From a phage, in sequence record PZ452608.1: a stretch of DNA of 64,000 bases; one strand, given 5' to 3'. A model generated the notes under the pieces. That model was not told the DNA's origin. It saw only the letters and a program-made list of their open reading frames with translations, and did not search any database. This document shows, one piece after another, positions 3,929 to 34,221 of the stretch; within the stretch, counting starts at the first letter, position 1; the number at the start of each line of letters is the position of its first letter. A program made the position numbers and the translations under genes.

Positions 3929-5275
3929 ATGAGTTCGAATATCTTCAGACTTGCTGATAGATTATTCAACCAACCTTTACTAGCCACTGAATCATTAGCT
4001 CACTCAGCAGCAACTTATGTGAATAACAGATTGCTGGGTGATGTCCAAGCAGCAGTAAACTTTGATAAACCCAAAGGTGAAGCAAGAAGTCTTTTAAAAG
4101 TAAAAGATGACATTGCTATTATCCCTATTATGGGTGGTTTAACTCATCGTATGACGTTCATTGATGCAATGTGTACAGGTGGATTAAGCTCTTATGAGGG
4201 TTTACGTAGAGGCTTTGACGAAGCTTTAGCAGATGAGTCAATCAAGACTATTGTTCTGCATATTGATTCTGGTGGTGGTGAAGCTTCAGGTTGCTTTGAA
4301 TTAGCACGTCACATTATGGCTTCAAGAGGCCAAAAGAAAATTATTGCTTATGTAGATGAGTTCGCTTGTTCCGCTGCATACGCTCTTGCATCTTCTGCTG
4401 AAGAAATTATTGCATCACCAGATGCAGATGTTGGTTCTATTGGTGTAATCATGGTTCATCAGGAATTAACTAAGGCATTTGAAAAGAATGGCGTAACAAT
4501 TAACGTCATCAAAGCTGGTGAGTTTAAAGGTATGGGTTCACCATTCCAAGCACTCTCAGAAGAAAGCAAAGAAAGACTTCAAAAGAGAATTAATGATACC
4601 TACGCAACCTTTACAGGTTTTGTAGCCGAATCTCGTAATCTCTCTGAAGAAGCTGTAAAGAATACTGAGGCGAATGTTTATTCTGCTCAGGAAGCTCTTG
4701 AACTTGGTTTAATTAACTCAATCATGTCTCAAGATGATTTCTTAAATTACTTACAAGGTTCTGAAGAGGCTCCTGTAAGTTTAAACGTTAACAATTCAGG
4801 TGAAGAAATGACTGAACAAGAAAAGCAAGAACTAGAGGCTTTGCGTCTTCAGGTTGCTCAAATGAAAGCCAAAGAACAGGAAGCTGCTTTGTCAGATTTG
4901 ACTAATAAGATTTCTGCTTCTGCTGAAGCTTTTGGATTTGATGCAAAAGAAGCTGCAACGACTATTTTAGGTGCTGGTCTTGATAACCCTCTGAGTGTTC
5001 TGTTTATGAATGCTATGGAAGGTGCTAACCAGAAACTTAATGAAACTATCGCGTCCCATGCTTCTGCAATGGAAGAAAAAGAATCAGAAATTACCAAGCT
5101 GAAAGAAACTGCTGGTGCTGTTCTTGAGCATTCTAATGCTATGGAAGAAATGGGTAATAACGGTGAAGCTGATTTGGTTGAAGAAGAAAAAGAACCAGCT
5201 AAGAATGCTTCCGAAGACACCGCTGAACAACGCAAACTGGCTCTCCAGAATGCTCTAAAATCTCTTATCAAATAA
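3929..5275 (+). CDS. Prohead protease of S49/ClpP fold (lambda gpC-like) fused to coiled-coil scaffold-like C-terminus
   Basis: Motifs IVLHIDSGGGEASGCFE and SAAYALASSAEEIIASPDADVGSIGV typical of S49 peptidases; C-terminal half Ala/Glu/Lys-rich coiled coil; sits before decoration and capsid genes. Confidence 0.75.
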   Translation: MSSNIFRLADRLFNQPLLATESLAHSAATYVNNRLLGDVQAAVNFDKPKGEARSLLKVKDDIAIIPIMGGLTHRMTFIDAMCTGGLSSYEGLRRGFDEALADESIKTIVLHIDSGGGEASGCFELARHIMASRGQKKIIAYVDEFACSAAYALASSAEEIIASPDADVGSIGVIMVHQELTKAFEKNGVTINVIKAGEFKGMGSPFQALSEESKERLQKRINDTYATFTGFVAESRNLSEEAVKNTEANVYSAQEALELGLINSIMSQDDFLNYLQGSEEAPVSLNVNNSGEEMTEQEKQELEALRLQVAQMKAKEQEAALSDLTNKISASAEAFGFDAKEAATTILGAGLDNPLSVLFMNAMEGANQKLNETIASHASAMEEKESEITKLKETAGAVLEHSNAMEEMGNNGEADLVEEEKEPAKNASEDTAEQRKLALQNALKSLIK

Positions 5276-5286
5276 GGAACACAATA

Positions 5287-5664
5287 ATGGCATATCAAGG
5301 TTTTACTAAGTTAGGTAACAGAGAACCTCTGAATGATATCATTCTTTGGGAACAGATTACCCCAACAGGCCACTCTCGTAAAGAGTACACTCCAGTTGCT
5401 TCAACAGAATACCGTGTAGGTGAAGTTCTGAAAGCAGATGGTACTAAGGTACAAGCTGGAGAAGAAGCCCAAGCAGACTCTGTATGTATCGTTAATTTCT
5501 ACGCAGACCTGCAACTGTCTTATCATGGTCAGTTGAAAGTGGTAGGTATCCACCGTGATGCAGAACTGAAAGACCTGCTTACTCTTGAAGCGAGCGTTGA
5601 TGCTGCTGCCGTCAAGACAGCTCTGGCTGCTAAAGGTATTGATTTCGTACCAACTGGCCTGTAA
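5287..5664 (+). CDS. Head decoration protein (gpD-like, candidate)
   Basis: 125 aa ORF directly upstream of the major capsid gene, lambda-like order; host-optimal codon usage (ctg, cgt, ggt). Confidence 0.5.
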   Translation: MAYQGFTKLGNREPLNDIILWEQITPTGHSRKEYTPVASTEYRVGEVLKADGTKVQAGEEAQADSVCIVNFYADLQLSYHGQLKVVGIHRDAELKDLLTLEASVDAAAVKTALAAKGIDFVPTGL

Positions 5665-11258: not shown

Positions 11259-16642
<5,384 letters not shown>

Positions 16643-19273: not shown

Positions 19274-20449
19274 ATGGCAGTAGGTGAAATTCAAATTAGT
19301 GCCTTGCCACAAGCGGCCTTACCAGTTGATTTGAGTGATATCTTCCACCTTAAGCAAGGTGTTGAGGATAAAAGATGTACGCTTGAGCAGTTGTTAGCAC
19401 CTCACGCATCTTTGAGGAATAACCCTCATGGTGTAACTAAATCACAAGTAGGTCTTGATAATGTTATTAACTCTCTTCAATTAGTTGCAGCTAATAACTT
19501 GTCAGATATTGTAAGTGTTGCTGAGGCAAGAGCAAATCTACAAATTATGTCGTCAGAGGAAGTGAATAACTTAATTCAGCAACATATTGACGACAAAAGT
19601 AACCCACACAATACAACGAAAGCACAGGTTGGTTTAAGTAATGTTCAGAACTGGACAACATCTAATCTGTACAATGAAGATGCTGATAAGTATGCTACCG
19701 CGAAAGCAGTTAATAATTTATACAAAGCTATCCAAGCGTCATATCCAGTAGGGACTATTCATCTATCTGTTAACTCTGCTAACCCATCCACTTACTTGCT
19801 TTGTGGAGGTACTTGGGAGTTAGTTTCTAAAGGTAGAGCACTAGTTGGTTATGATACAGATTCTAGACCTGTTGGTTCAACGTTTGGTTCTCAGACTGTA
19901 GCATTAACAAATAATAATTTACCAGCACATACTCACTCTATCTATCTAACAGGTGGTGGTCATACACACTCTGCAAGTGTATCTATCTCTAGTTTTGATT
20001 ATGGTTCAAAAAGTACATCAACTTTTGATTACGGTACAAAAACGACTAATAGTGCTGGTGCTCACACTCACACGTTTAGTGGCACAACAAGTAATGCTGG
20101 TAACCACAACCATAGAGTCCCTATGAGGGGTAATGATAGGGGTGGCACAAACGCTATTACTGCATCTGCTGATGCTGGTGTTGGTAATGCTATGTATACT
20201 GATTTAGCTGGTGCTCACACCCATAGCTTCTCAGGTACAACTGCATCATCTGGTGCTCATAGCCATACTGTCGCAATTGGTGCTCACAGCCACACTGTTA
20301 ATATTGGTTCGCACAGTCATACAGGCACTGTTACTGTTTCTAGCTCTGAGCATACACACTCAGGGACATCTGGTTCTGTTGGTGGTGGTCAAGCTTTCAG
20401 TGTTGAGCAGCCATCTTTTGTAGTGTATGTGTGGCAGAGAACAGCTTAA
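19274..20449 (+). CDS. Tail fibre protein with His-x-His metal-binding C-terminal domain
   Basis: C-terminal repeats GAHTHTFSG, NHNHRVP, GAHSHTVAIGAHSHTVNIGSHSHTG and SFDYGTKT, as in T4 gp12/gp37-type receptor-binding tips. Confidence 0.7.
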   Translation: MAVGEIQISALPQAALPVDLSDIFHLKQGVEDKRCTLEQLLAPHASLRNNPHGVTKSQVGLDNVINSLQLVAANNLSDIVSVAEARANLQIMSSEEVNNLIQQHIDDKSNPHNTTKAQVGLSNVQNWTTSNLYNEDADKYATAKAVNNLYKAIQASYPVGTIHLSVNSANPSTYLLCGGTWELVSKGRALVGYDTDSRPVGSTFGSQTVALTNNNLPAHTHSIYLTGGGHTHSASVSISSFDYGSKSTSTFDYGTKTTNSAGAHTHTFSGTTSNAGNHNHRVPMRGNDRGGTNAITASADAGVGNAMYTDLAGAHTHSFSGTTASSGAHSHTVAIGAHSHTVNIGSHSHTGTVTVSSSEHTHSGTSGSVGGGQAFSVEQPSFVVYVWQRTA

Positions 20450-20495: not shown

Positions 20496-23042
20496 ATGGC
20501 AGATTACAAATTGAGTCAGTTAAACTCAATCGACACAATTCGTTCAGAAGACCTATTGCACATCAGAGTTAAGAAAAGACCTGAAATGTTGGGTGACGAA
20601 GACCGTAGAATGACCTATCAAGACTTCTTAGCTTCCTTCAAACTAGAAAGGTTTGTTCAGATTGCTGGAAGCACTATGACGGGGGATTTAGGTATTGTCA
20701 AGTTACTTTACGGTGGTAAGGCAGTATTTGACCCTACAGGTTCTTCTGAAATTACTATTGGGGATGTTTTAAAGACTTTTAAACTTAACGCAAGTGGTCT
20801 TAAACTAACTATTGCAGATGCTTCAAGGTCAGCAACTGTTTATCATACTCTGAATAAGCCAAGTCCTAATGAGCTTGGTATGAGAACTAATGAAGAGAAT
20901 GACGCAAGATATGCAAGACTTGCTATCACAAACACATTCTCTGGGACTCAGAACATTCAAGGTGATGCTAACTTACTTCGCCTTAGAAACCAAAATGCAA
21001 ATAATGCACAATATATTGAAGGTGTAAACCTAGATGGTTCGGCTAGATGGTGGGTTGGTATTGGTAGTAATGGCTCTGACGAAGTAAAGCTGTGCAATAA
21101 CAAATACAACTCAGTCTTGACTGTTGCAAGTAATATCTCTGTTAATAAGTCTTTAGCAATCACTGGTCAAGTTCAGCCTTCTGATTTCTCTAACTTAGAT
21201 GCTAGATACTTTACTCAGACGGCAGCTAATCAGAGATTTGCACAGTTAGCTGGCAATAATACTTTTACAGGTGCTAACACTTTCACTAACCTTGTTGCTA
21301 AGAAGAATGCTAATGCCATTACTTTGCAGAATACTGATGCAAATACAGCACTTTACATTCTCGGTAAGAAGTCTGATGGAACAAATAAATGGTATGTTGG
21401 TACAGATTCTGACGAGACACGTCTAAACATTTATAACTACCTTACAGGTTCACAGGTTTCACTAGGTACTACTATTGGTATCAATAAAACTGTGCAAATC
21501 ACTGGACAAGTCCAACCTTCAGATTGGGCTAACATTGACTCTAGATATATTCCGGTAGCAACATTAAGTACGATTGCAAGAACTAATGCAAGGAATACTT
21601 TTAATGGTGTACAGACAGTTGTTACGGATAATGAAGGTCTGATTGTTAAAAACTCTACTCAGAATAGACCATTATATATTCGTGGTGTGGACACTACTAA
21701 TGTATCAAGATGGTGGATTGGTGTTGGTGGTGCTGACACGAATGATGTTACCCTAAATAACAGTTATTCTGGAACCCAATTGGTTCTCGGGAATACAACA
21801 TCATACATTAACAAAACATTGACTATTGCTGGACAAGTTCAACCTTCAGATTTCTCTAACTTAGATGCTAGATACTTTACGCAAAGTGCTAGTGATAGTA
21901 GATACCTAAGAATCAGAAGCACTAGCTTCAATGTGGGAAACACTGATAAGTGGGCTAAAATTGCCACTGTTGTGATGCCACAATCAGCATCCACTGCTGT
22001 TATTGAGGTATTTGGTGGGTCAGGTTTTAATATTAATACACCAAACCAAGCAGGTAAATGTGAAATTGTTCTGCGAACTTCAAATAACAATCCAAAGGGC
22101 TTAAATGTTGTTGCTTGGAGAACATCAGAGAACACCATTGTCAGGGATATTGGTTATGTGAATACTTCTGGAGACACCTATGATATTTACTATCTTGCTG
22201 GTACGTATCAAAACAGCACAACGACAAGGGTTCAGTCTTCTAGTAATGCAAGTGTACAGTTGTTTGAAGTCCCACAGACATTTGATGATGCTCCACAAGG
22301 TATTGTGAAGGGTACAATTGCAAAATACTACACAAGTTTGCAAAAACCAACCCCTTCAGATATTGGTGCATACACTAAAGCAGAGACTGACCAGAAGATT
22401 GCAGAAGCAATTAGTGACTCTACAGACCTGAATAAAATCTATCCAGTAGGTATTGTGACGTGGTTTAACAGTAATGTCAACCCAAACACAGCACTTCCTG
22501 GGTTAACTTGGACGTACCTGAATAATGGTGTTGGTAGAACTATTAGAATTGCAGCAGCAAACGGTTCAGATGTTGCTACAACTGGTGGTTCAGACTCTGT
22601 AACGTTGTCTGTTGGTAACTTACCTTCACACACGCACAGCTTCTCTGCTACTACTTCATCATTTGACTATGGTACTAAGACTTCTAGCACAACTGGTAAC
22701 CACAACCACAACAGAGGTACTATGGAGATTACTGGTTCATTTGGTTACTTCAGAAGTGACGCTAGTAGCTTCTACACAGCAAGTGGTGCATTCTACCTCG
22801 GTAGTCAGGCAGGTTCTAAAGGGTATACTGGTAACAACTTTACTAATGGTATCCCTGTCAACTTCAACGCATCAAGAAACTGGTCTGGTGTAACGAATAC
22901 AACAGGTAACCACAGCCACACTGTTGGTATTGGTGCTCACAGCCACACAGTTAGCGGTAACACAGGTGGTACTGGTTCTGGTTCAGCATTTAGTGTTACT
23001 AACCAGTTCTATAAGTTAATGGCTTGGGTAAGAACTGCTTAA
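20496..23042 (+). CDS. Long tail fibre protein with internal tandem repeats and His-x-His C-terminal domain
   Basis: ATG at 20496 with AGAGGAAAA RBS (track start 20427 is upstream); three approx 110-aa tandem repeats ending ITGQVQPSDFSNLDARYFTQ; C-terminal PSHTHSFSATT, NHNHNRG, NHSHTVGIGAHSHTVSGN. Confidence 0.75.
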   Translation: MADYKLSQLNSIDTIRSEDLLHIRVKKRPEMLGDEDRRMTYQDFLASFKLERFVQIAGSTMTGDLGIVKLLYGGKAVFDPTGSSEITIGDVLKTFKLNASGLKLTIADASRSATVYHTLNKPSPNELGMRTNEENDARYARLAITNTFSGTQNIQGDANLLRLRNQNANNAQYIEGVNLDGSARWWVGIGSNGSDEVKLCNNKYNSVLTVASNISVNKSLAITGQVQPSDFSNLDARYFTQTAANQRFAQLAGNNTFTGANTFTNLVAKKNANAITLQNTDANTALYILGKKSDGTNKWYVGTDSDETRLNIYNYLTGSQVSLGTTIGINKTVQITGQVQPSDWANIDSRYIPVATLSTIARTNARNTFNGVQTVVTDNEGLIVKNSTQNRPLYIRGVDTTNVSRWWIGVGGADTNDVTLNNSYSGTQLVLGNTTSYINKTLTIAGQVQPSDFSNLDARYFTQSASDSRYLRIRSTSFNVGNTDKWAKIATVVMPQSASTAVIEVFGGSGFNINTPNQAGKCEIVLRTSNNNPKGLNVVAWRTSENTIVRDIGYVNTSGDTYDIYYLAGTYQNSTTTRVQSSSNASVQLFEVPQTFDDAPQGIVKGTIAKYYTSLQKPTPSDIGAYTKAETDQKIAEAISDSTDLNKIYPVGIVTWFNSNVNPNTALPGLTWTYLNNGVGRTIRIAAANGSDVATTGGSDSVTLSVGNLPSHTHSFSATTSSFDYGTKTSSTTGNHNHNRGTMEITGSFGYFRSDASSFYTASGAFYLGSQAGSKGYTGNNFTNGIPVNFNASRNWSGVTNTTGNHSHTVGIGAHSHTVSGNTGGTGSGSAFSVTNQFYKLMAWVRTA
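20928..21911 (+). repeat. Three tandem approx 330-bp in-frame repeats inside the long fibre gene
   Basis: Repeat units each carry NTF(S/T/N)G ... (W)WVG.G ... I(T/A)GQVQPSD(F/W)(S/A)N(L/I)D(A/S)RY; cores near 21159, 21498 and 21825. Confidence 0.7.
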
Positions 23043-26319: not shown

Positions 26320-26619
26320 TTAATCTGCCAACCTTAAATTGAAATTAACACCAAATTTTTCACACACTTCCAACATATACTCAAGAGAGACATTCCCAGT
26401 GAGGTGGATTATGTTGGATACACGAGCTTGAGAGATACCACAAATTTTAGCGACTTGCTCTTGAGAAAGACCTCTGGATTTAATCTCTCTCTTAAAACGA
26501 TGTGCAACGAAGTCTCTCATTTCGTCTACATCCATTGGACAAATATAACTCTCCATTTCAGCCTCTCTATCAGCCTCCCAATCATCTTGTGGGGCATAAG
26601 GGTCAAAAACCTCATTCAT
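26320..26619 (-). CDS. XRE-family helix-turn-helix DNA-binding protein
   Basis: C-terminal HTH LSQEQVAKICGISQARVSNIIH; ATG at 26619 (track start 26649 is TTG). Confidence 0.6.
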   Translation of the reverse strand: MNEVFDPYAPQDDWEADREAEMESYICPMDVDEMRDFVAHRFKREIKSRGLSQEQVAKICGISQARVSNIIHLTGNVSLEYMLEVCEKFGVNFNLRLAD

Positions 26620-26825: not shown

Positions 26826-27209
26826 TCAGATACCTGTGCAGCTTCTGTTTTCTAAGAAATACTCAACACCGTACATAGCTTTTTGCATCAAATCTTCTTT
26901 AAACTGGATACGATGGTTGAGCATAGCCTGTACATCAATATCATCATGGTGCTTCTCTTTAATATTTGCAGATTGCAGGAAATACTCTGCAAGAACACGA
27001 TATTGATAGTCAGTCACCTTATCAGTCATCTCTGTCAAAGACTCTTCAGAGATTGGTTTCAGTAGCTCACCATTAGCCAGAACAACACCTTTTACAATCT
27101 GGCAAGTATCTTCTGGAACACCTGATAAGTCCACATTGGGAAGTTCTGTTGCATTGACTGGTAAATTTATTGCCATAACCATTGCAGCAGTTAATAAAAT
27201 CTTTTTCAT
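26826..27209 (-). CDS. Secreted/periplasmic protein with cleavable signal peptide
   Basis: MKKILLTAAMVMAINLPVNA followed by TE; first gene after the 27210-27596 control region. Confidence 0.55.
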   Translation of the reverse strand: MKKILLTAAMVMAINLPVNATELPNVDLSGVPEDTCQIVKGVVLANGELLKPISEESLTEMTDKVTDYQYRVLAEYFLQSANIKEKHHDDIDVQAMLNHRIQFKEDLMQKAMYGVEYFLENRSCTGI

Positions 27210-27253
27210 AATGACCTCAAAGTTATATTAAATTTTGTATTATATTGAGTATA

Positions 27254-27283
27254 AAAATAAGCTATAACACCTGACTTGTCAAC
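27254..27283 (-). promoter_or_regulatory. Candidate - strand promoter TTGACA-N18-TATTTT (weak -10)
   Basis: Minus-strand TTGACA at + coordinates 27278-27283; overlapped by a 13-bp inverted repeat. Confidence 0.3.
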
Positions 27284-27301
27284 AGATTTTATAGCTTATT
27301 T
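27255..27301. promoter_or_regulatory. Operator-like perfect inverted repeat (13-bp arms, 21-bp spacer)
   Basis: AAATAAGCTATAA at 27255-27267 and TTATAGCTTATTT at 27289-27301; spacer contains the - strand TTGACA. Confidence 0.5.
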
Positions 27302-27317
27302 GGCAGATTTTTTATAA

Positions 27318-27398
27318 GGCTACTGCCATCCTTCCATACCAAACCAAACCTTACAAGACCCAACCACACATCACTGTACTCAACAGAACTCTACCCTA
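27318..27398. repeat. G-poor CA-rich low-complexity tract (A1)
   Basis: ggctactgccatccttccataccaaaccaaaccttacaagacccaaccacacatcac...; almost no G on + strand. Confidence 0.6.
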
Positions 27399-27476
27399 CC
27401 TCATTAAAAGACCCTCTTAAAGACCTTTTAAAAAGGTAAGTCTCATTTTAATGTAGCTGAGACTAACTACCCATAC
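27399..27476. repeat. Direct repeat copy 1 (58 nt identical core 27419-27476)
   Basis: aaagaccttttaaaaaggtaagtctcattttaatgtagctgagactaactacccatac is identical to 28812-28869; preceded by cctcattaaaagaccctctt. Confidence 0.8.
27430..27467 (-). terminator. Intrinsic terminator on - strand (module hairpin plus U5)
   Basis: On - strand GUUAGUCUCA-loop-UGAGACUUAC followed by CUUUUUAAAAGG; lies about 130 nt downstream of the 27597 stop. Confidence 0.5.
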
Positions 27477-27529
27477 CAGACCCTACCTTACCAAACCAGA
27501 CCTCACCCTACCCCACCATACCGTATACT
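27468..27529. repeat. G-poor CA-rich tract (A2)
   Basis: tacccataccagaccctaccttaccaaaccagacctcaccctaccccaccataccgtatactac. Confidence 0.6.
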
Positions 27530-27569
27530 ACCTCATTAAAAGACCTTGTTTAAAGACCTTTTAATGAGG
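27530..27569. repeat. Perfect 12-bp-stem hairpin (AAAGACC repeat unit 2)
   Basis: CCTCATTAAAAG-accttgtttaaagac-CTTTTAATGAGG; contains two AAAGACC words 13 bp apart. Confidence 0.6.
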
Positions 27570-27588
27570 AGCCTCCGAAGAGGCTACC
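27568..27588 (-). other. GC hairpin with UUCG-type loop immediately 3-prime of the 27597 stop, no U-tract
   Basis: GGAGCCTC-CGAA-GAGGCT on + strand, same hairpin family as the window terminators but followed by CUCAUUAAAAGG on - strand. Confidence 0.45.
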
Positions 27589-27596
27589 TAGTCAAC

Positions 27597-28037
27597 TTAG
27601 AAAGGTTTTCTGCGTTGCTTGTTAATGTTAGCTTTCATAGCAGCTAAATGGTTTTGCTGTTCAATTAGTCGTGAACGTTCTTGGTGGCTAAGTGCCATAG
27701 TATTCACATTCTCAATTGCTTGAGTGGCTTGCTTTAAAGCTCGACCAATCTTACCAGACATTTTGCGTTTTGCAATAGTTGCTTGATGCTTAGGTTCAAC
27801 CACACGATAACCAACACCCATTGAAGCAACCAGATAAATCTTCTCTTCTTTAAGAAGCTTCTCAATAAACTTCTCAAGTCGGTTTAGACGTGTAAGTGCA
27901 TAAGCCTTCATTTCATCTTCGTACTTAACAATGTCACCTTGATAAGTTGGCTTCACAATACCTAAGAAGGTGTCCATCTCAGAATGTGATACAGTGTCAC
28001 CGTAACTAAACTTTGCTGCTAATGCTTTTGTATTCAT
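27597..28037 (-). CDS. Hypothetical protein (cassette gene 2)
   Basis: 146 aa ORF, ATG start, basic C-terminus KANINKQRRKPF; stop 3 nt after cassette gene 1. Confidence 0.5.
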   Translation of the reverse strand: MNTKALAAKFSYGDTVSHSEMDTFLGIVKPTYQGDIVKYEDEMKAYALTRLNRLEKFIEKLLKEEKIYLVASMGVGYRVVEPKHQATIAKRKMSGKIGRALKQATQAIENVNTMALSHQERSRLIEQQNHLAAMKANINKQRRKPF

Positions 28038-28039
28038 AA

Positions 28040-28645
<606 letters not shown>

Positions 28646-28719
28646 TTAGTTGATTGTTAAGTTGTTTGTAAAGAACCCTCAACAGAAGACTCTTTAGAAA
28701 CTTGGTAGATTTTTAACGT

Positions 28720-28790
28720 GGCTACTACCATCCACCCATACCGTGCCACACCACACCGGACCGTACCATGCCCAACCCTACTACACCAGA
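28720..28790. repeat. G-poor CA-rich tract (B1)
   Basis: ggctactaccatccacccataccgtgccacaccacaccggaccgtaccatgcccaaccctactacaccagacc; begins with same ggctactNccatcc as tract A1. Confidence 0.6.
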
Positions 28791-28869
28791 CCTTATTAAA
28801 AGACCCTCTCCAAAGACCTTTTAAAAAGGTAAGTCTCATTTTAATGTAGCTGAGACTAACTACCCATAC
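28791..28869. repeat. Direct repeat copy 2 (58 nt identical core 28812-28869)
   Basis: Identical to 27419-27476; preceded by cttattaaaagaccctctcc. Confidence 0.8.
28823..28860 (-). terminator. Intrinsic terminator / attenuator on - strand inside the leader of the cassette
   Basis: Same hairpin plus U5 as 27430-27467, about 200 nt upstream of the 28627 start codon and downstream of the candidate promoter at 28998-29025. Confidence 0.45.
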
Positions 28870-28928
28870 ATTACCGCACCATATTATACCCTACCCCACC
28901 ATACTTCACTGCACCGAGCCACGCATTA
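28861..28928. repeat. G-poor CA-rich tract (B2)
   Basis: tacccatacattaccgcaccatattataccctaccccaccatacttcactgcaccgagccacgcattaca. Confidence 0.6.
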
Positions 28929-28967
28929 CATCACTTAAAAACCCTTTTCAAAGACTCTTAAGTGATG
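28929..28967. repeat. Hairpin, degenerate copy of the AAAGACC unit
   Basis: CATCACTTAA-aaacccttttcaaagactc-TTAAGTGATG. Confidence 0.5.
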
Positions 28968-28997
28968 CTGGTGAGTACCCGTTGGTTTATGATGCTC

Positions 28998-29025
28998 AGT
29001 ATACTCACCAAATTTTCTATGTCAA
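28998..29025 (-). promoter_or_regulatory. Sigma70-like promoter on - strand, TTGACA-N16-TATACT
   Basis: + strand tgtcaa at 29020-29025 and agtata at 28998-29003 read as TTGACA and TATACT on - strand; overlapped by inverted repeat GGTGAGTA...TACTCACC (28970-29009). Confidence 0.45.
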
Positions 29026-29181
29026 CAACTTTTATAAAAAAGTTCTGATAGCTATATGCGTCACGAAACAAAAGATTGTAAACAAGACACCCATTGCAAA
29101 AGATGTGTCCAAAAGCTTACTTGCAACGTATGACAATACAAAGACAACCAGTATAAACAAAATGACTGTACTGAACATAGT

Positions 29182-30282
29182 TTACTCATAATCCCTAATA
29201 ACGAGACCAACAGGGAACTGTAAAGACCCCTTACGAGTCATCTTCTGGAACTGAACCGTTAAAGGTTTCCCGATAAACTCATCAGGATGCTCAGCAAGGT
29301 ACTGTTTCTTCTCATGAGTAGTCTTCCATGAGACATCTACAAAGACGTTAGGAAGAGTCTCTACAACGAACTTACCATGACCACGTTTATCAGTCTTTAC
29401 ACCAGTCACTTTAAACTCTTCAGTGTGCATCTTCTTGTGCTTAATCAAGAAGTATGAACGGTGACAACACTCATAGAAGGAGTCTTCAGAGATTGAACGG
29501 TACATTGCACCTTCAAACTTAACTTCAACCCACTTATCATGAGCTTCATCAAATTCTTCCCAAGAGTTTACACGACGAGACTTAACAGGGACAACTTTAC
29601 AGCCATCTCTCAAGTCATTCAATGGTGAAGTCTCAATAATATCCCTACGTTCAGGCCACGTCTTAGTGCTATCACAGATGTCATACCAGTAAAACTTAAG
29701 AAGATGTCTGTCTGGGTTGTCTTCATTTTTAATCATGGAGACAATATCTTCTAAGTCCCACCCATGAGCATAAACCTCCCCGTCAAACTCATCAACGTCT
29801 GCATGGAGTCTTAACATAGTCATAATGTCAGGTGTTAGCTCAGTAGGTATTTTATAAACAGTATTCTCACGAGAATAAGCCGTGAAACTAACTGAATCAT
29901 CACCTCTTGAAATTCTACAACGGACACCATCAAGTTTTGGTTGAGCATCAGCAGGGAACTTCAGATACTTTGCATGGCTAACCTTTGCAGCATCATGAGC
30001 AAGCTGTACACCTACCTTCTCAGTATTCTGTGCAGACTCTTTTGTGTAAGCGTAACCTTTACGGTCTACTTGTTTCTTATACTTAGCAGAAACTTCAAAG
30101 AGAGCTTGCTGTTCAGCGTTACGCTCATTCTTTTTACCGATGTTTTTAGGTTCTGCTGTATACTCTTCAAACATCATCTTGCCATTTTCTTTACCGTAGG
30201 TTGTAATAACTTTGTCACCTACAGCAACACATGACCAGATGTTAAAAGAGCCATCTTTATTTTGTTTGTACAGTATTGTCAT
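29182..30282 (-). CDS. ATP-dependent DNA ligase (T4 ligase-like)
   Basis: Adenylation motif FPADAQPKLDGVRCRI (KxDG); ATG at 30282 with GAGGAA RBS right after upstream stop. Confidence 0.8.
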   Translation of the reverse strand: MTILYKQNKDGSFNIWSCVAVGDKVITTYGKENGKMMFEEYTAEPKNIGKKNERNAEQQALFEVSAKYKKQVDRKGYAYTKESAQNTEKVGVQLAHDAAKVSHAKYLKFPADAQPKLDGVRCRISRGDDSVSFTAYSRENTVYKIPTELTPDIMTMLRLHADVDEFDGEVYAHGWDLEDIVSMIKNEDNPDRHLLKFYWYDICDSTKTWPERRDIIETSPLNDLRDGCKVVPVKSRRVNSWEEFDEAHDKWVEVKFEGAMYRSISEDSFYECCHRSYFLIKHKKMHTEEFKVTGVKTDKRGHGKFVVETLPNVFVDVSWKTTHEKKQYLAEHPDEFIGKPLTVQFQKMTRKGSLQFPVGLVIRDYE

Positions 30283-31521: not shown

Positions 31522-34221
31522 TTAGTGTACTTCAAGCCAGCTTTTACCAACCTTACCAGTACCTGTTACAAGTGTTTCTTTCTTAAGACCTAAGTTCTTA
31601 GAAGCTTGTCCATAATACCAGTCAGTAACTGCTTTCACTTCTGCCGTCATACTTTCTGGACATTCCCAGCTTGTTTCATCGTGATATGCGCAGAGTAAAC
31701 GAGCACCAATAGCTGGTTGACGACCATTTAACTTCATCAAACCTTCGTCAATCATACGACGACAAGCAAGGTTAATTGCCTCATTTTGAATCTGAGCCTC
31801 TGAACCCATCAAAAGGTAGTTCAACAGTTTGTGTGGAGATTTACACCACAACCAAGCTCCAGCAACCTTTACAAAACCCCCTTTAGAGATTGCAGCAGTC
31901 TTACCAAACACCTCTTCAAGTGCCTTTTTAGTCGCTTTGTAGTCAGCTTCCAAGTCATCTAGCAGCTTCTTAATTTTAGGCAAACGGATAAAGTAAGTCT
32001 GTTTAGTCAGTGCACCTTCCTGAGTAGTTGCAGCTTTAATTGTCTTAGCAAACTTCTCATCACCTGCACCGAACAGCAGTGCATAGATACCATTCTTAGC
32101 TTTCTTACGACCCTTGCTAATCTCATGAAGAAGATTCTCATCCTGAGTAGCTCGACAAGTCAAGATATCCTGCTCATCATTCAAGCTAAAGTAAATACTG
32201 TTCAGTGTGTGTGCATCAGTCCCTGAATAGACAACGTAAAGGTCATTCTCAGAGTCATAGCGAAGGTACTTATCAATCTCTGGGTTGAGGTACTCATCAA
32301 AATGTTTGCAGTAATAGCGTCCATCTTCTTGACGAATAAACTCAATCTCTTCTTTACCTTGCGTTACCGCTTTGGTGAAGTCTTTGTCACCCATAAAGTT
32401 ACAAAGGAGAACTAGCTGGGCTGAGTTCATGTCTACAGAGACAACATTAGTACCTTCTTCACAAATCCACACTGCCCTCATTGGCTCCCCATAGACAGCA
32501 GCACCAGACGGTACGTTTACAATACCATATTGTGTCATACGTCCAGTTGAAGTACCAAATACCATTGCACCAGCACTAAGGCGACCATCTGGACGAATCT
32601 GGTTCAGCCAACCTTTCTCGTCATCCTTTGAGTTCTCAATAGTTCTGCGTCGGTGCATCAAAGTATAGTACTTCGCAATCTTCTGTCCAAGCTCACCTTC
32701 AATCGTATCATAAGATGATTCAGTAAGTTTTGGTGAAGTACGGATTAAGCAAGGCTCAAGCAAATCTGTGTATTTCTTCACAGACCAGTTATGCTCGATG
32801 TACTGTACACCTTCATGTTCAACATAACTCAAACCACACCGCTCAACCATTTCCTGCCACTTAGGATGCTTTGTAATCATCTTTTTATTGTCTTTGAAAC
32901 GACAAACTTTGACAGGGCGACCATCTGAGTCTTTCTTGTAATTCCAGTCATCTGGAATCCAACCAACTGATTTCAAGTAGTCTTTAACAACTGCTACCTG
33001 AGTCATACGAGAAACTTCAAACTCAATTGGTGTATATGGTGCATCAATCAAACCTGTGTAGCGACTTGACTCAAGTTCAAAGTGGTTAACAACATGACTG
33101 TTATAGTACTTCACAGTTTTGACTGTCTTTACTGGCTTCCAGTCTTTGCATTTCTTACCAATCTTTGCGTTCAACTCATTGCAAATTGCACGAGCATCCT
33201 TCATTGCTACAAAGCCTTCCTTGTACTCTTCACCAGTTACAGAGTTGGTTGGTGTATAGCAATTTCTCTTTTCAATGTTAAAAATCTTTGTAGTTGGCTT
33301 ACCAAATGGCTTGATTTCGTATGTCTGCATCTCACCGTTACGTACCTGCTGACGGTACTTTGTCTTAGGGTACTTGGTAATCCTCTTCAGACCATCTGCA
33401 TGACCGAATGTTTCAACATATTCATTCCAAGCTTTTGCAAACTCTTCTCCAGTAACTTTACCTTTGGTCTTAATAGTTGGAGGTAGATGCGGTTCAACCT
33501 CTGAAGCAAGCTCATTAGTCAACTTGTCAAGCTCCTTTACATGAAACTCCATAAGCTCTTTATCAGCTTTCCAACCATTGATAGCCTGTTGACTCATCCA
33601 GAAAGATGTCTCTTTAGCTCGCATGTAAGTTTCATAAGTGTCTATACCACACTTCTTAAGCTTGAGATATTCATTATCCAGTGCACGTTTAGTTTTGGCG
33701 TTAATACGGATATCTTCTACAACACGAGTGAAGATTTCTGCATTCCAAACACCCCAATGCTCAATCTCTGGCTTACGAACACCAACACGAGCACCCCATG
33801 CAGCCAAGCCATGAGCACCTTTATAACCCTTTGGAGTTGGTCTATCCATCCACTGAACACGAGACTGGATAAGAGAATCCTGAAAGAAATTACTCCACGG
33901 CTTACACTTTGGATTATCAAAGTTCCATAAATCAGGGGCAATGTGATTGAAAACCCACCAGTCATAACCGAGACCATTATGGATGCAAAGACGTTTTGCC
34001 TTTAACGCAAACTCAATACCTTCACGTAAGCCACCCTTAATGTACTTGGTATACTTGTGACCGAGGATAGGCTCGTCTGTAAAGACCCATACAGGCGGCT
34101 CTTCATCGTCAGATTTATAGTCTGCGAAAGCCATTACGTGAACTTTAGTGAACTCAAGGAGTAAACCATCAGTTTCTGTATCACCAACTAAATGTAAGTT
34201 TTTAAAATCTACGTTTTCCAT
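31522..34221 (-). CDS. DNA polymerase, family A, with 3-5 exonuclease domain
   Basis: Exo motif VGDTETDGL; motif B KKAKNGIYALLFGAGDEKFA; motif C LCAYHDETSWECPE; ATG at 34221 with GAGGGAG RBS (track start 34251). Confidence 0.85.
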   Translation of the reverse strand: MENVDFKNLHLVGDTETDGLLLEFTKVHVMAFADYKSDDEEPPVWVFTDEPILGHKYTKYIKGGLREGIEFALKAKRLCIHNGLGYDWWVFNHIAPDLWNFDNPKCKPWSNFFQDSLIQSRVQWMDRPTPKGYKGAHGLAAWGARVGVRKPEIEHWGVWNAEIFTRVVEDIRINAKTKRALDNEYLKLKKCGIDTYETYMRAKETSFWMSQQAINGWKADKELMEFHVKELDKLTNELASEVEPHLPPTIKTKGKVTGEEFAKAWNEYVETFGHADGLKRITKYPKTKYRQQVRNGEMQTYEIKPFGKPTTKIFNIEKRNCYTPTNSVTGEEYKEGFVAMKDARAICNELNAKIGKKCKDWKPVKTVKTVKYYNSHVVNHFELESSRYTGLIDAPYTPIEFEVSRMTQVAVVKDYLKSVGWIPDDWNYKKDSDGRPVKVCRFKDNKKMITKHPKWQEMVERCGLSYVEHEGVQYIEHNWSVKKYTDLLEPCLIRTSPKLTESSYDTIEGELGQKIAKYYTLMHRRRTIENSKDDEKGWLNQIRPDGRLSAGAMVFGTSTGRMTQYGIVNVPSGAAVYGEPMRAVWICEEGTNVVSVDMNSAQLVLLCNFMGDKDFTKAVTQGKEEIEFIRQEDGRYYCKHFDEYLNPEIDKYLRYDSENDLYVVYSGTDAHTLNSIYFSLNDEQDILTCRATQDENLLHEISKGRKKAKNGIYALLFGAGDEKFAKTIKAATTQEGALTKQTYFIRLPKIKKLLDDLEADYKATKKALEEVFGKTAAISKGGFVKVAGAWLWCKSPHKLLNYLLMGSEAQIQNEAINLACRRMIDEGLMKLNGRQPAIGARLLCAYHDETSWECPESMTAEVKAVTDWYYGQASKNLGLKKETLVTGTGKVGKSWLEVH

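Follow-up and report, generated by a model that had tools for sequence, protein, structure and literature searches.

A VIPR locus in Escherichia phage wV8 and its first guide RNA, vrRNA1

VIPR (Viral Interference Programmable Repeat) is an RNA-guided system for DNA silencing, akin to CRISPR, that was introduced in preprints of 2026 (bioRxiv 10.64898/2026.04.26.720920,.720927). Its parts are the vipr gene, an accessory vap gene and vrRNAs of ~100 nt, in which 9-16 YNNGG repeats are followed by a ~40-nt 3′ pseudoknot tail (bioRxiv 10.64898/2026.04.26.720920,.720927). In SUSP1, the ~100-nt vrRNAs co-purify with Vipr and were seen bound to it by cryo-EM, which also resolved the 3′ pseudoknot cap. 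Each pentamer is bound by one Vipr protomer, with GGY sequestered and NN exposed, and the NN bases pair with double-stranded DNA, every third target base being skipped, leading to the silencing of transcription (bioRxiv 10.64898/2026.04.26.720920,.720927). Repression in the SUSP1 clade, which counts 13 loci and is delimited by more than 90% identity to SUSP1 Vipr, is mostly of a satellite phage, and the ~20-kDa Vipr has been proposed as the ancestor of the CRISPR RAMP proteins (bioRxiv 10.64898/2026.04.26.720920,.720927).

VIPR resembles class 1 CRISPR systems in having a RAMP protomer, with thumb and glycine-rich loop, that polymerises on the guide RNA (Cas7: Csm3/Cmr4/Cse4), and in the periodic interruption of the pairing between guide and target. 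The period is 6 nt with five pairing bases in class 1 CRISPR, however, compared to 5 nt with two pairing bases in VIPR, where the target is read as NNx. Unlike class 1 CRISPR, VIPR has no CRISPR array, Cas1/Cas2 or PAM; it is carried by a virulent phage, and instead of a repeat-flanked spacer it uses a degenerate microsatellite as guide.

Here we analyze a 64,000-nt stretch of phage DNA (PZ452608.1; hereafter the window, whose coordinates are used throughout), in which a sequence-only reading had proposed a small RNA or regulated leader on the minus strand. Positions 27200-29200 align at 100% identity with Escherichia phage wV8 (EU877232.1, Felixounavirus), and the flagged region is the 5′ end of the VIPR locus of this phage, with vrRNA1 the first of four vrRNAs. 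The best explanation, to which we assign a probability of about 0.93, is that the feature represents the upstream end of a VIPR locus (type II, SUSP1 clade), a kind of system that is already known.

The wV8 VIPR locus and its protein-coding genes

The region lies within a 389-nt gap between a small unannotated ORF, located after the DNA ligase gene gp96, and the gp95-gp94 cassette; all genes around the locus are on the minus strand (Table 1). Two vrRNAs are found upstream and two downstream of vipr-vap1. GenBank marks only 58-nt 'DR_4' repeats (28812-28869 and 27419-27476), and a related record (KhF3) labels a piece of the repeat region 'possible binding site of StbAB'. These repeats are not described in the genome papers of Felix O1 and wV8, and a full-text literature search for pentanucleotide, GGTNN or GGU repeats returned nothing relevant. 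Rfam covariance models produced only chance-level matches between positions 26500 and 29800 (E 1.5-9.8, none reaching the gathering score). In the VIPR preprints, the main text makes no reference to wV8.

Table 1. Features of the wV8 VIPR locus in window coordinates
Feature	Position	Strand	Details
Promoter P1	28998-29025	minus	-35 TTGACA 29025-29020, 16-nt spacer, -10 TATACT 29003-28998
Inverted repeat TGGTGAGTA ... TACTCACCA	28969-29010	minus	arms at 29010-29002 and 28977-28969; 9 bp perfect, 24-nt loop
Hairpin H1	about 28928-28968	minus	directly 5′ of first vrRNA1 repeat; RNAfold dG -18.5 kcal/mol
vrRNA1 guide tract, 13 YNNGG repeats	28864-28928	minus	phase parse
vrRNA1 3′ tail (hairpin-pseudoknot)	28832-28863	minus	covariation
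Hairpin H2	28790-28830	minus	directly 5′ of vrRNA2; RNAfold dG -13.8 kcal/mol; family alignment
vrRNA2	28704-28790	minus	11 YNNGG repeats (28790-28736) and E1-type tail
Further H-type hairpin	28664-28701	minus	just upstream of vipr ribosome-binding site; identical sequence in 16 loci
vipr (gp95), 195-aa predicted RAMP protein	28040-28627	minus	PDB 36pp identity, AlphaFold2 fold
vap1 (gp94), 146-aa accessory protein	27597-28037	minus	identity to SUSP1 post-vipr gene
Small hairpin AGCCTC-UUCG-GAGGCT	27570-27585	minus	directly after vap1 stop codon; read from sequence; no call in terminator scan
Hairpin H (27569-27531), vrRNA3 with 12 repeats (27530-27471) and T1-type tail (27470-27439)	27439-27569	minus	
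Hairpin H (27438-27399), vrRNA4 with 13 repeats (27398-27334) and E2-type tail (27333-27302)	27302-27438	minus	
Promoter P2 for gp93	27254-27282	minus	TTGACA, 17-nt spacer, TATTTT; downstream edge of VIPR insert

The gp95 protein is identical to SUSP1 Vipr (PDB 36pp) at 191 of 195 residues (E 6e-128), and a profile of the gp95 family retrieved the same PDB entry, 'SUSP1 Vipr protein', with an E value of 7e-80. At 98% identity, wV8 Vipr exceeds the 90% clade threshold, and it keeps the contact residues quoted in the VIPR paper (H17, E71, M72, R138, C173, D177, W178 and R179). The AlphaFold2 model (pLDDT 95) has Csm3/Cas7 subunits as its nearest other folds (Foldseek E about 5e-5, TM about 0.5), and gp95 is predicted to be a Cas7/Csm3-like RAMP protein. 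It has a conserved C-terminal motif (G plus 11 residues) that we take to resemble the RAMP glycine-rich loop. The family comprises at least 520 proteins of about 190 aa and has no Pfam domain; Pfam and PADLOC searches with gp95 and gp94 gave nothing but a sub-threshold Cas6 hint on one homologue, and the PHROGs matches were families of unknown function only. The gp94 gene starts 3 nt downstream of vipr, and its product, without a match in Pfam, PDB or PADLOC, is 99% identical to that of the gene after vipr in SUSP1. We use the name vap1 given in the VIPR preprints (bioRxiv 10.64898/2026.04.26.720920,.720927).

The components by which VIPR systems are recognized are found in wV8: a Vipr protein, an adjacent vap1, YNNGG tracts flanking vipr, a pseudoknot tail and targets matched with a 1-nt skip. 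Besides near-identical Vipr (98%) and Vap1 (99%) proteins, wV8 and SUSP1 share the position of the locus, flanked by the DNA ligase gene and the gp93 homologue, as well as the YNNGG repeats, the tail types, the predicted target satellite family and the 1-nt skip code. The two loci differ in the distribution of their vrRNAs, with one upstream and three downstream of the cassette in SUSP1, compared to two and two in wV8. In our comparative set, the SUSP1 locus has 12 repeats in its first tract and, in this count as in number and placement of tracts, agrees with the published description. The NN codes of SUSP1 are also unlike those of wV8, and the target sites therefore differ.

The link between the repeats and gp95 extends well beyond Felixounavirus. 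We scanned IMG/VR for the exact pattern (GGTNN)5GGT, which is present in at least 120 viral contigs; removal of simple microsatellites left 46 loci with complex tracts, selected for GGTNN tracts alone and often arranged in arrays of up to 13 units. When all ORFs of the window were compared to the ORFs of these 46 loci, gp95 was the sole protein singled out. Homologues occur in 24 of the 46 loci (E<1e-4), with one more at a looser cutoff, and 23 are outside Felixounavirus. In all but one of these, the homologue has the strand orientation of the tracts and lies adjacent or near to them.

A promoter followed by tandem RNA units, a hairpin and a gene for a protein of ~200 aa is also the layout of toxIN, and the locus could on this basis be a type III toxin-antitoxin-like module, in which the repeat RNA array neutralises a small protein as ToxI does ToxN. 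The protein itself speaks against this, gp95 being a RAMP/RRM protein rather than a ToxN/AbiQ-like endoribonuclease, with no match in PADLOC. The repeats are degenerate pentamers and not exact units of ~36 nt, and whole phage genomes retain RNA units while lacking the gene for the protein, the reverse of addiction logic. We consider this interpretation almost certainly wrong, and the idea of a ToxI-like antitoxin was dropped.

Guide tracts, hairpins and the 3′ tail of vrRNA1

The G/U-rich tract noticed in the sequence-only reading is real and far beyond chance. A strict 5-nt period of GG is confined to four places in the 64-kb window, each of them minus-strand and within the gaps on either side of the cassette; these four tracts score 6-11 of 12 periodic-GG positions, compared to a maximum of 4 elsewhere in the window. 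The analogous stretch proposed 3′ of the cassette (27588-27430) is also present. Across loci, the pentamer preferences are G 0.78, G 0.99, T 0.83, N, N, with A at only 2% in the third position, such that GG-Y is conserved while NN is free and hypervariable. Tracts have 8-19 repeats, 12-13 being the commonest, and none occur on the opposite strand. In vrRNA1, the NN code reads AA GT TC GC GA AT GG AG AT AT GC AA (AT).

Each tract is part of a larger unit, in which a long G·U-rich hairpin (H) is followed directly by pentamers in fixed phase and then by a structured tail. The distance from hairpin to tail varies from 59 to 99 nt in steps of 5 nt, and is 1 nt off in 4 of 29 units. The hairpin described earlier at 28929-28967 with a 10-bp stem is H1, which folds with a 19-bp G·U-rich stem and a 3-nt loop. 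Hairpins of this type precede all four wV8 tracts, with an additional copy before the vipr ribosome-binding site, and recur before tracts among the 29 loci examined, in 61 distinct versions with stems of 17-19 bp. The main text of the VIPR preprints makes no mention of them. We tentatively propose, at somewhat below even odds, that the H hairpins may be a signal for processing by a host double-strand RNase (RNase III-type) and that vrRNA units may also work without a cis-encoded Vipr. Processing at these hairpins would set the 5′ ends of the vrRNAs and release them from a polycistronic precursor.

Several other functions were considered for these elements. BoxA- or CspE-like GUCUUU motifs in the H 'loop' were dropped, the bases in question being paired inside the long G·U-rich stem. 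A Rho rut site on the antisense strand left the strict period unexplained, and Chi-like or RecA-preferred GT-rich DNA was discarded since the hosts are too diverse. An SD-like ribosome sponge was likewise considered and dropped.

The tail of vrRNA1 can form a pseudoknot in which GTAG (28863-28860) pairs with the loop sequence CTAC (28849-28846), around a stem of AGTCTCA (28857-28851) with TGAGACT (28838-28832). In vrRNA2, the equivalent pairings are GTGG (28735-28732) with CCAC (28721-28718) and a GGTAG/CTACC stem. Among related loci, we found 21 distinct tails of four types (T1, T2, E1 and E2), which can be aligned gap-free. In these, the hairpin loop is the partner of the four bases that follow the last GG, in GTAG/CTAC, GTGG/CCAC and AAGG/CCTT combinations. 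The pseudoknot helix is 100% paired over the 21 tails, with compensatory changes in three of its four pairs, and the stem 89.8% paired, with compensatory changes in six of seven. Taken together, 93.5% of cells are paired and nine of the 11 pairs have changed on both sides, compared to 28-37% pairing when the partner was slid by 1-3 columns as a control; with only four tail types, few independent events lie behind this covariation. An alternative GGTA/TACC pairing, extending the stem towards the T run, was rejected, being only 57% paired with no compensatory change.

Positions 28860-28823 had been read as an intrinsic terminator. A hairpin followed by T5 is indeed present there, with three G-C pairs in a 7-bp stem, a loop of 12 nt and T5 spaced 4 nt from the stem, but its assignment as a terminator did not hold: it was not called in the terminator scan, and the T run is not conserved, being absent from tail types T2, E1 and E2. 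In wV8, the T5 run (28827-28823) belongs to the 5′ arm of the next hairpin, H2. Judging from the covariation of the tail and from a T5 run that is missing in the other types and pairs within H2, the 'terminator' is in fact the conserved cap, a hairpin with pseudoknot, at the 3′ end of the vrRNA.

These observations bear on what kind of RNA is made from this region. A discrete small non-coding RNA is indeed encoded on the minus strand, namely vrRNA1 (tract plus tail), and transcription must continue past the vrRNA region for the cassette to be expressed, as the proposed read-through implied. The size of roughly 170 nt and the function as a regulated leader fared less well. The SUSP1 data predict about 100 nt for tract plus tail, and the G/U tract corresponds to the guide portion of the vrRNA (YNNGG, one repeat per Vipr protomer) rather than to a leader or attenuator. 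Mature vrRNA1 is expected, by analogy with SUSP1, to be about 100 nt and to run from 28928 to about 28830; if transcription starts near 28990, the initial ~60 nt of the transcript would be leader. This leader would be composed of the 3′ arm of the inverted repeat and H1, whether processed or untrimmed, and may carry a secondary cis-regulatory role.

An alternative is that the whole ~170 nt act as a cis leader, in which a TRAP-like tract-binding factor, or an operator at the -10, decides between termination at 28860-28823 and read-through. The order of promoter, 5′ hairpin, periodic triplet-plus-2-nt tract and hairpin with T5 does recall the Bacillus trp leader, and the cassette lacks a convincing promoter of its own, the nearest candidate (28672-28643) matching 9 of 12 positions. 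The likeness to the TRAP/trp leader of Bacillus subtilis extends to the triplet with a 2-nt spacer repeated ~11 times, one subunit per repeat, and the 5′ hairpin. The TRAP triplet is (G/U)AG, however, and is read by an 11-mer ring in a cis attenuator, whereas VIPR has GGY and a helical RAMP filament that acts in trans on DNA, with a variable number of repeats and information carried in the spacers. A TRAP-like ring was rejected on these grounds, the repeat number not being fixed (8-19) and the triplet being GGY instead of (G/U)AG. Tract-plus-tail units are also found 3′ of the cassette and, in other phages, in arrays of up to 13; three of the four tail types lack the T run, and the terminator scan made no call. 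The variable repeat number, the match of the hypervariable NN bases to external targets, and the lack of a TRAP-family domain in the neighbouring proteins scanned also count against a cis leader, which we regard as very unlikely.

Promoter P1 and variation of the locus among related phages

The minus-strand promoter proposed in the sequence-only reading (P1, Table 1) is present as a candidate of sigma-70 type and matches 11 of 12 consensus positions, making it the best site in the 5 kb scanned. Promoter-like sites were found at chance level in this segment (11 vs. 12.0 expected), so the consensus match by itself proves little. In a set of 28 Felixounavirus-type loci from IMG/VR (29 with wV8), however, a TTGACA-spacer-TANNNT pattern is found at the position of P1 in 28 of 29 loci, and in loci lacking VIPR it directly precedes the gp93 homologue. 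P1 is likely to be the start of a vrRNA1-vrRNA2-vipr-vap1 transcript.

The inverted repeat over the -10 is also present, its 5′ arm ending within the -10 hexamer, and had been suggested to be an operator. Three relatives without VIPR (L019, L020 and L021) have perfect repeats of 8-12 bp at the same position over the -10 that are unrelated in sequence; complementarity has thus been kept through four unrelated sequences in different phages. That complementarity is retained while the sequence is not points to a structure in the nucleic acid more than to an operator recognised by its sequence.

The arrangement of a promoter and stem-loop at the edge of an accessory cassette is reminiscent of the PeSL (promoter-early stem-loop) cassettes that have reportedly been described in T4-type phages. 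These also combine a strong sigma-70-type promoter with a stem-loop bordering a cassette that is present or absent, and their repeated units could mediate exchange. PeSLs are short promoter-terminator modules without pentamer tracts or a dedicated protein, however, unlike the wV8 locus, and the resemblance would be limited to P1, P2 and their inverted repeats.

The order of elements in the comparative set is ligase, P1, 0-3 units, an optional gp95-gp94 cassette with 1-3 more units after it, P2 and gp93. In three relatives without units, P1 lies directly before the gp93 homologue. Protein identity across loci is 97-100% for the cassette, 86-96% for the ligase and 31-98% for gp93, and the number of units ranges from 0 to 6 among close relatives. 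Canonical H-tract-pseudoknot units are also found in roughly 100 Felixounavirus-type genomes in which vipr is absent genome-wide, Salmonella phage BPS15S6 being a checked example, and some satellite islands likewise carry vrRNA units without vipr. These orphan elements could rely on Vipr supplied in trans by a co-infecting phage; their function is not treated in the main text of the VIPR preprints.

This variability raises the question of whether the tracts act as DNA, through R-loops or two-tier G-quadruplexes (at an origin or at a recombination hot spot that shuffles cassettes) or as iterons for a partition protein, as the StbAB note in the KhF3 record would have it. The strong GC skew downstream of the promoter and the range of 0 to 6 units among close relatives would fit such a function, as would the 97-100% identity of the cassette compared to 31-96% for the flanking genes, which suggests recombination between units. 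We also take GGTNNGGTNNGG to resemble the thrombin-aptamer G-quadruplex. The G·U-dependent hairpins and the covariation of the tail pseudoknot, on the other hand, are features of RNA, and a 5-bp period would not be able to present one face of duplex DNA to a protein. The near-identical RNAs of SUSP1, moreover, co-purify with Vipr and were resolved in the bound state by cryo-EM. A function as DNA is in our view extremely improbable, and an R-loop origin was considered and dropped. Recombination between units may nonetheless explain the variation in copy number, as a side effect.

In a VIPR locus of this layout, transcription from P1, or read-through from the ligase operon, would yield a precursor containing H1-vrRNA1-H2-vrRNA2-vipr-vap1-vrRNA3-vrRNA4. 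Each vrRNA would consist of 11-13 YNNGG pentamers followed by a hairpin-pseudoknot tail of ~35-40 nt, and the G·U-rich H hairpins may serve as the processing sites that release the ~100-nt vrRNAs.

Targets of the wV8 guides

Felixounavirus tail genes match an E. coli chromosomal island of roughly 11-15 kb that carries a serine recombinase, a tape-measure gene and a baseplate gene. The island is present in 420-550 of 5,426 complete E. coli genomes (about 10%) and agrees with the satellite described in the VIPR paper. No clear target of wV8 emerged from the first satellite locus by itself, which called for a wider panel; guides were scored against 239 kb from 13 satellite loci. With a 1-nt skip, 36 of 53 guides from cassette-bearing loci match the panel at 85% or better, three of them perfectly. 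With skips of 0, 2 and 3 nt, the 85% level was reached by 0, 0 and 1 of the 53 guides, respectively.

For wV8 itself, with the invariant last repeat left out, the guides of vrRNA1, vrRNA3 and vrRNA4 match the panel at 23/24, 19/20 and 21/24 positions, respectively, scores that were reached by none of 200 order-shuffles. Other skip lengths gave at most 17/24 (71%) for vrRNA1 and vrRNA4, and 16/20 (80%) for vrRNA3. No significant target for vrRNA2 was seen in the 239-kb panel (16/20, a score reached by 15 of 200 shuffles).

The site matched by vrRNA1, AAAGTATCCGCTGAAATGGGAAGGATGATTGATAAAGC, is in register with the reading frame of the satellite tape-measure gene (KVSAEMGRMIDK), such that each skipped base is a wobble base. 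This site is found at 15477 in the tape-measure CDS (14403-16472) of satellite locus L157, and also in E. albertii and five IMG/VR contigs. The orthologous site of wV8, coding for a stretch of 12 residues, differs; vrRNA1 does not match the phage's own tape-measure gene, its best match to wV8 itself being 18/26, and the guide falls exactly where nucleotide similarity between helper and satellite ends. The vrRNA3 match is in a non-coding part of the satellite. We propose that wV8 would use its vrRNAs to repress a parasitic satellite that shares its tail genes, with the NN code of vrRNA1 directed to the satellite tape-measure gene and those of vrRNA3 and vrRNA4 to the same E. coli/E. albertii satellite family.

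Globally, these data independently replicate, by computation, the published 1-nt skip code, and provide a concrete vrRNA1 target in the satellite tape-measure gene, located where the helper and satellite sequences diverge. Recognition of the wV8 locus corrects the GenBank labels of 'DR_4' repeats, hypothetical proteins and a possible StbAB site. It also places in this phage a new form of RNA-guided DNA recognition, in which the guide is non-contiguous and a PAM is not needed. wV8 is a classical typing and biocontrol phage of E. coli O157:H7 and, with the satellite being present in about 10% of complete E. coli genomes, the wV8-satellite interaction is of practical relevance.

vrRNA units outside the wV8 cassette

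Units composed of hairpin, YNNGG tract and pseudoknot are also found at phage loci that lack vipr and vap1, the two genes of the cassette. The complete 87.6-kb genome of Salmonella phage BPS15S6 carries two canonical units of this kind, placed between the ligase and gp93 genes. Neither vipr nor vap1 was found anywhere in this genome; a tblastn search for vipr with 42 diverse Vipr queries gave a best E-value of 0.048. More broadly, leader or tract DNA is present in about 231 phage records, and vipr in only 118 Ounavirinae records. Under the 1-nt skip rule, in which NN dinucleotides pair and every third target base is skipped, four of the nine guides restricted to cassette-less loci match the satellite at 85% or more.

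Beyond Felixounavirus, the VIPR-like loci from IMG/VR show more than one layout. In one, up to 13 tracts form an array after a gp95 (vipr) homologue, and short spacers such as GGAATGGTTTAATGAATTTAATT in L067 lie between them; in another (L130), the tracts that follow the homologue are just 2-3 nt apart. Some tracts in L064 and L125 reach 20-60 pentamers. At least 12 unrelated viral contigs share a separate motif in which iteron-like GTATAC/GGATAC-type repeats precede a fixed (GGTTAGGTTAGGTAA)x2 block; this motif could represent either a further, single-vrRNA type of VIPR or an unrelated origin-like element.

Features of wV8 DNA and compared loci
Feature	Sequence	Position	Strand	Remark
Orphan vrRNA units	BPS15S6, MG646670.1 (L169+L170)	32551-32752		
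Orphan vrRNA units, further loci	L007, L009, L015, L024, L028-L031			
VIPR-like loci beyond Felixounavirus	L067	2217-3406		IMG/VR
	L053	3331-5318		IMG/VR
	L119	2363-3148		IMG/VR
	L055, L130, L125, L064			IMG/VR
Iteron-like repeat + (GGTTAGGTTAGGTAA)x2	L035, L036, L041, L049, L052, L056, L058, L095, L109, L115, L118, L122			
G·U-rich hairpins	window	28928-28968, 28790-28830, 28664-28701, 27531-27569, 27399-27438		
Inverted repeat at P1	window	28969-29010		5′ arm abuts -10
Inverted repeats at P1 position, relatives	L019	about 5114-5169		
	L020	about 5118-5175		
	L021	about 5274-5322		
Inverted repeat at P2	window	27259-27297		arms AAGCTATAA (27297-27289), TTATAGCTT (27267-27259)
48-aa ORF	window	29032-29178	-	directly downstream of ligase gene
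GAHSH-type coding repeats	window	20045-20327, 22900-22963		
Satellite-borne vrRNA	L156	9375-9444	-	
	L157	9381-9430	-	
Satellite family	L152-L158			E. coli chromosomes at yecE (DUF72), near tonB, at mdtG

Hairpins, inverted repeats and coding features of wV8

G·U-rich hairpins of 17-19 bp lie directly 5′ of every wV8 vrRNA tract and of the vipr ribosome-binding site. GGUCUUU pairs with GGGUCUUU in these structures, which in the DNA sequence resemble direct repeats. The hairpins, candidate sites of processing, are not discussed in the main text of the VIPR preprints.

The inverted repeat at P1, the promoter upstream of vrRNA1, occurs in different phages in four versions of 8-12 bp that are unrelated in sequence. 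Only a transcript reading through from upstream, or DNA in single-stranded form, could fold into the P1 hairpin. At P2, the gp93 promoter, the -35 hexamer and spacer lie inside a second, distinct inverted repeat.

The wV8 GenBank record does not annotate the 48-aa ORF, which matches phrog_22006 (E = 5.5e-33); some related loci have this ORF and others lack it. Elsewhere in the window, two tail-fibre genes have several copies of GAHSH-type (Gly-Ala-His-x-His) coding repeats in common; in Felix O1, genes 76 and 77 are reported to share repeats of this type.

The vr1 pattern and the satellite islands

The 20-base pattern of vr1, the vrRNA1 guide, has further matches in unrelated genomes, those of Methanothrix, Paeniglutamicibacter and Lachnospiraceae (L159, L160, L161, L167), where the encoded peptide is K/N-V-S-A-D/E-I-G-R/S-I/M-I. 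Since the guide skips wobble bases, it in effect reads a peptide motif, one that may be conserved among tape-measure-like proteins.

The satellite family was found in 420-550 of 5,426 complete E. coli genomes. Its genes code for a large serine recombinase, a tape-measure protein, an HNH endonuclease and a baseplate protein, and the baseplate gene shares up to 96% DNA identity with window positions 13507-14050. The family is strongly mosaic, and copies are frequently disrupted by IS elements. E. coli satellite islands (L156, L157) also encode a vrRNA of their own, whose tail is like E1, a Felixounavirus tail type, with a compensatory stem variant in which GTCG pairs with CGAC. No vipr or vap1 homologues were found in the satellite island loci examined, and the satellite vrRNAs presumably rely on the Vipr of the helper phage.
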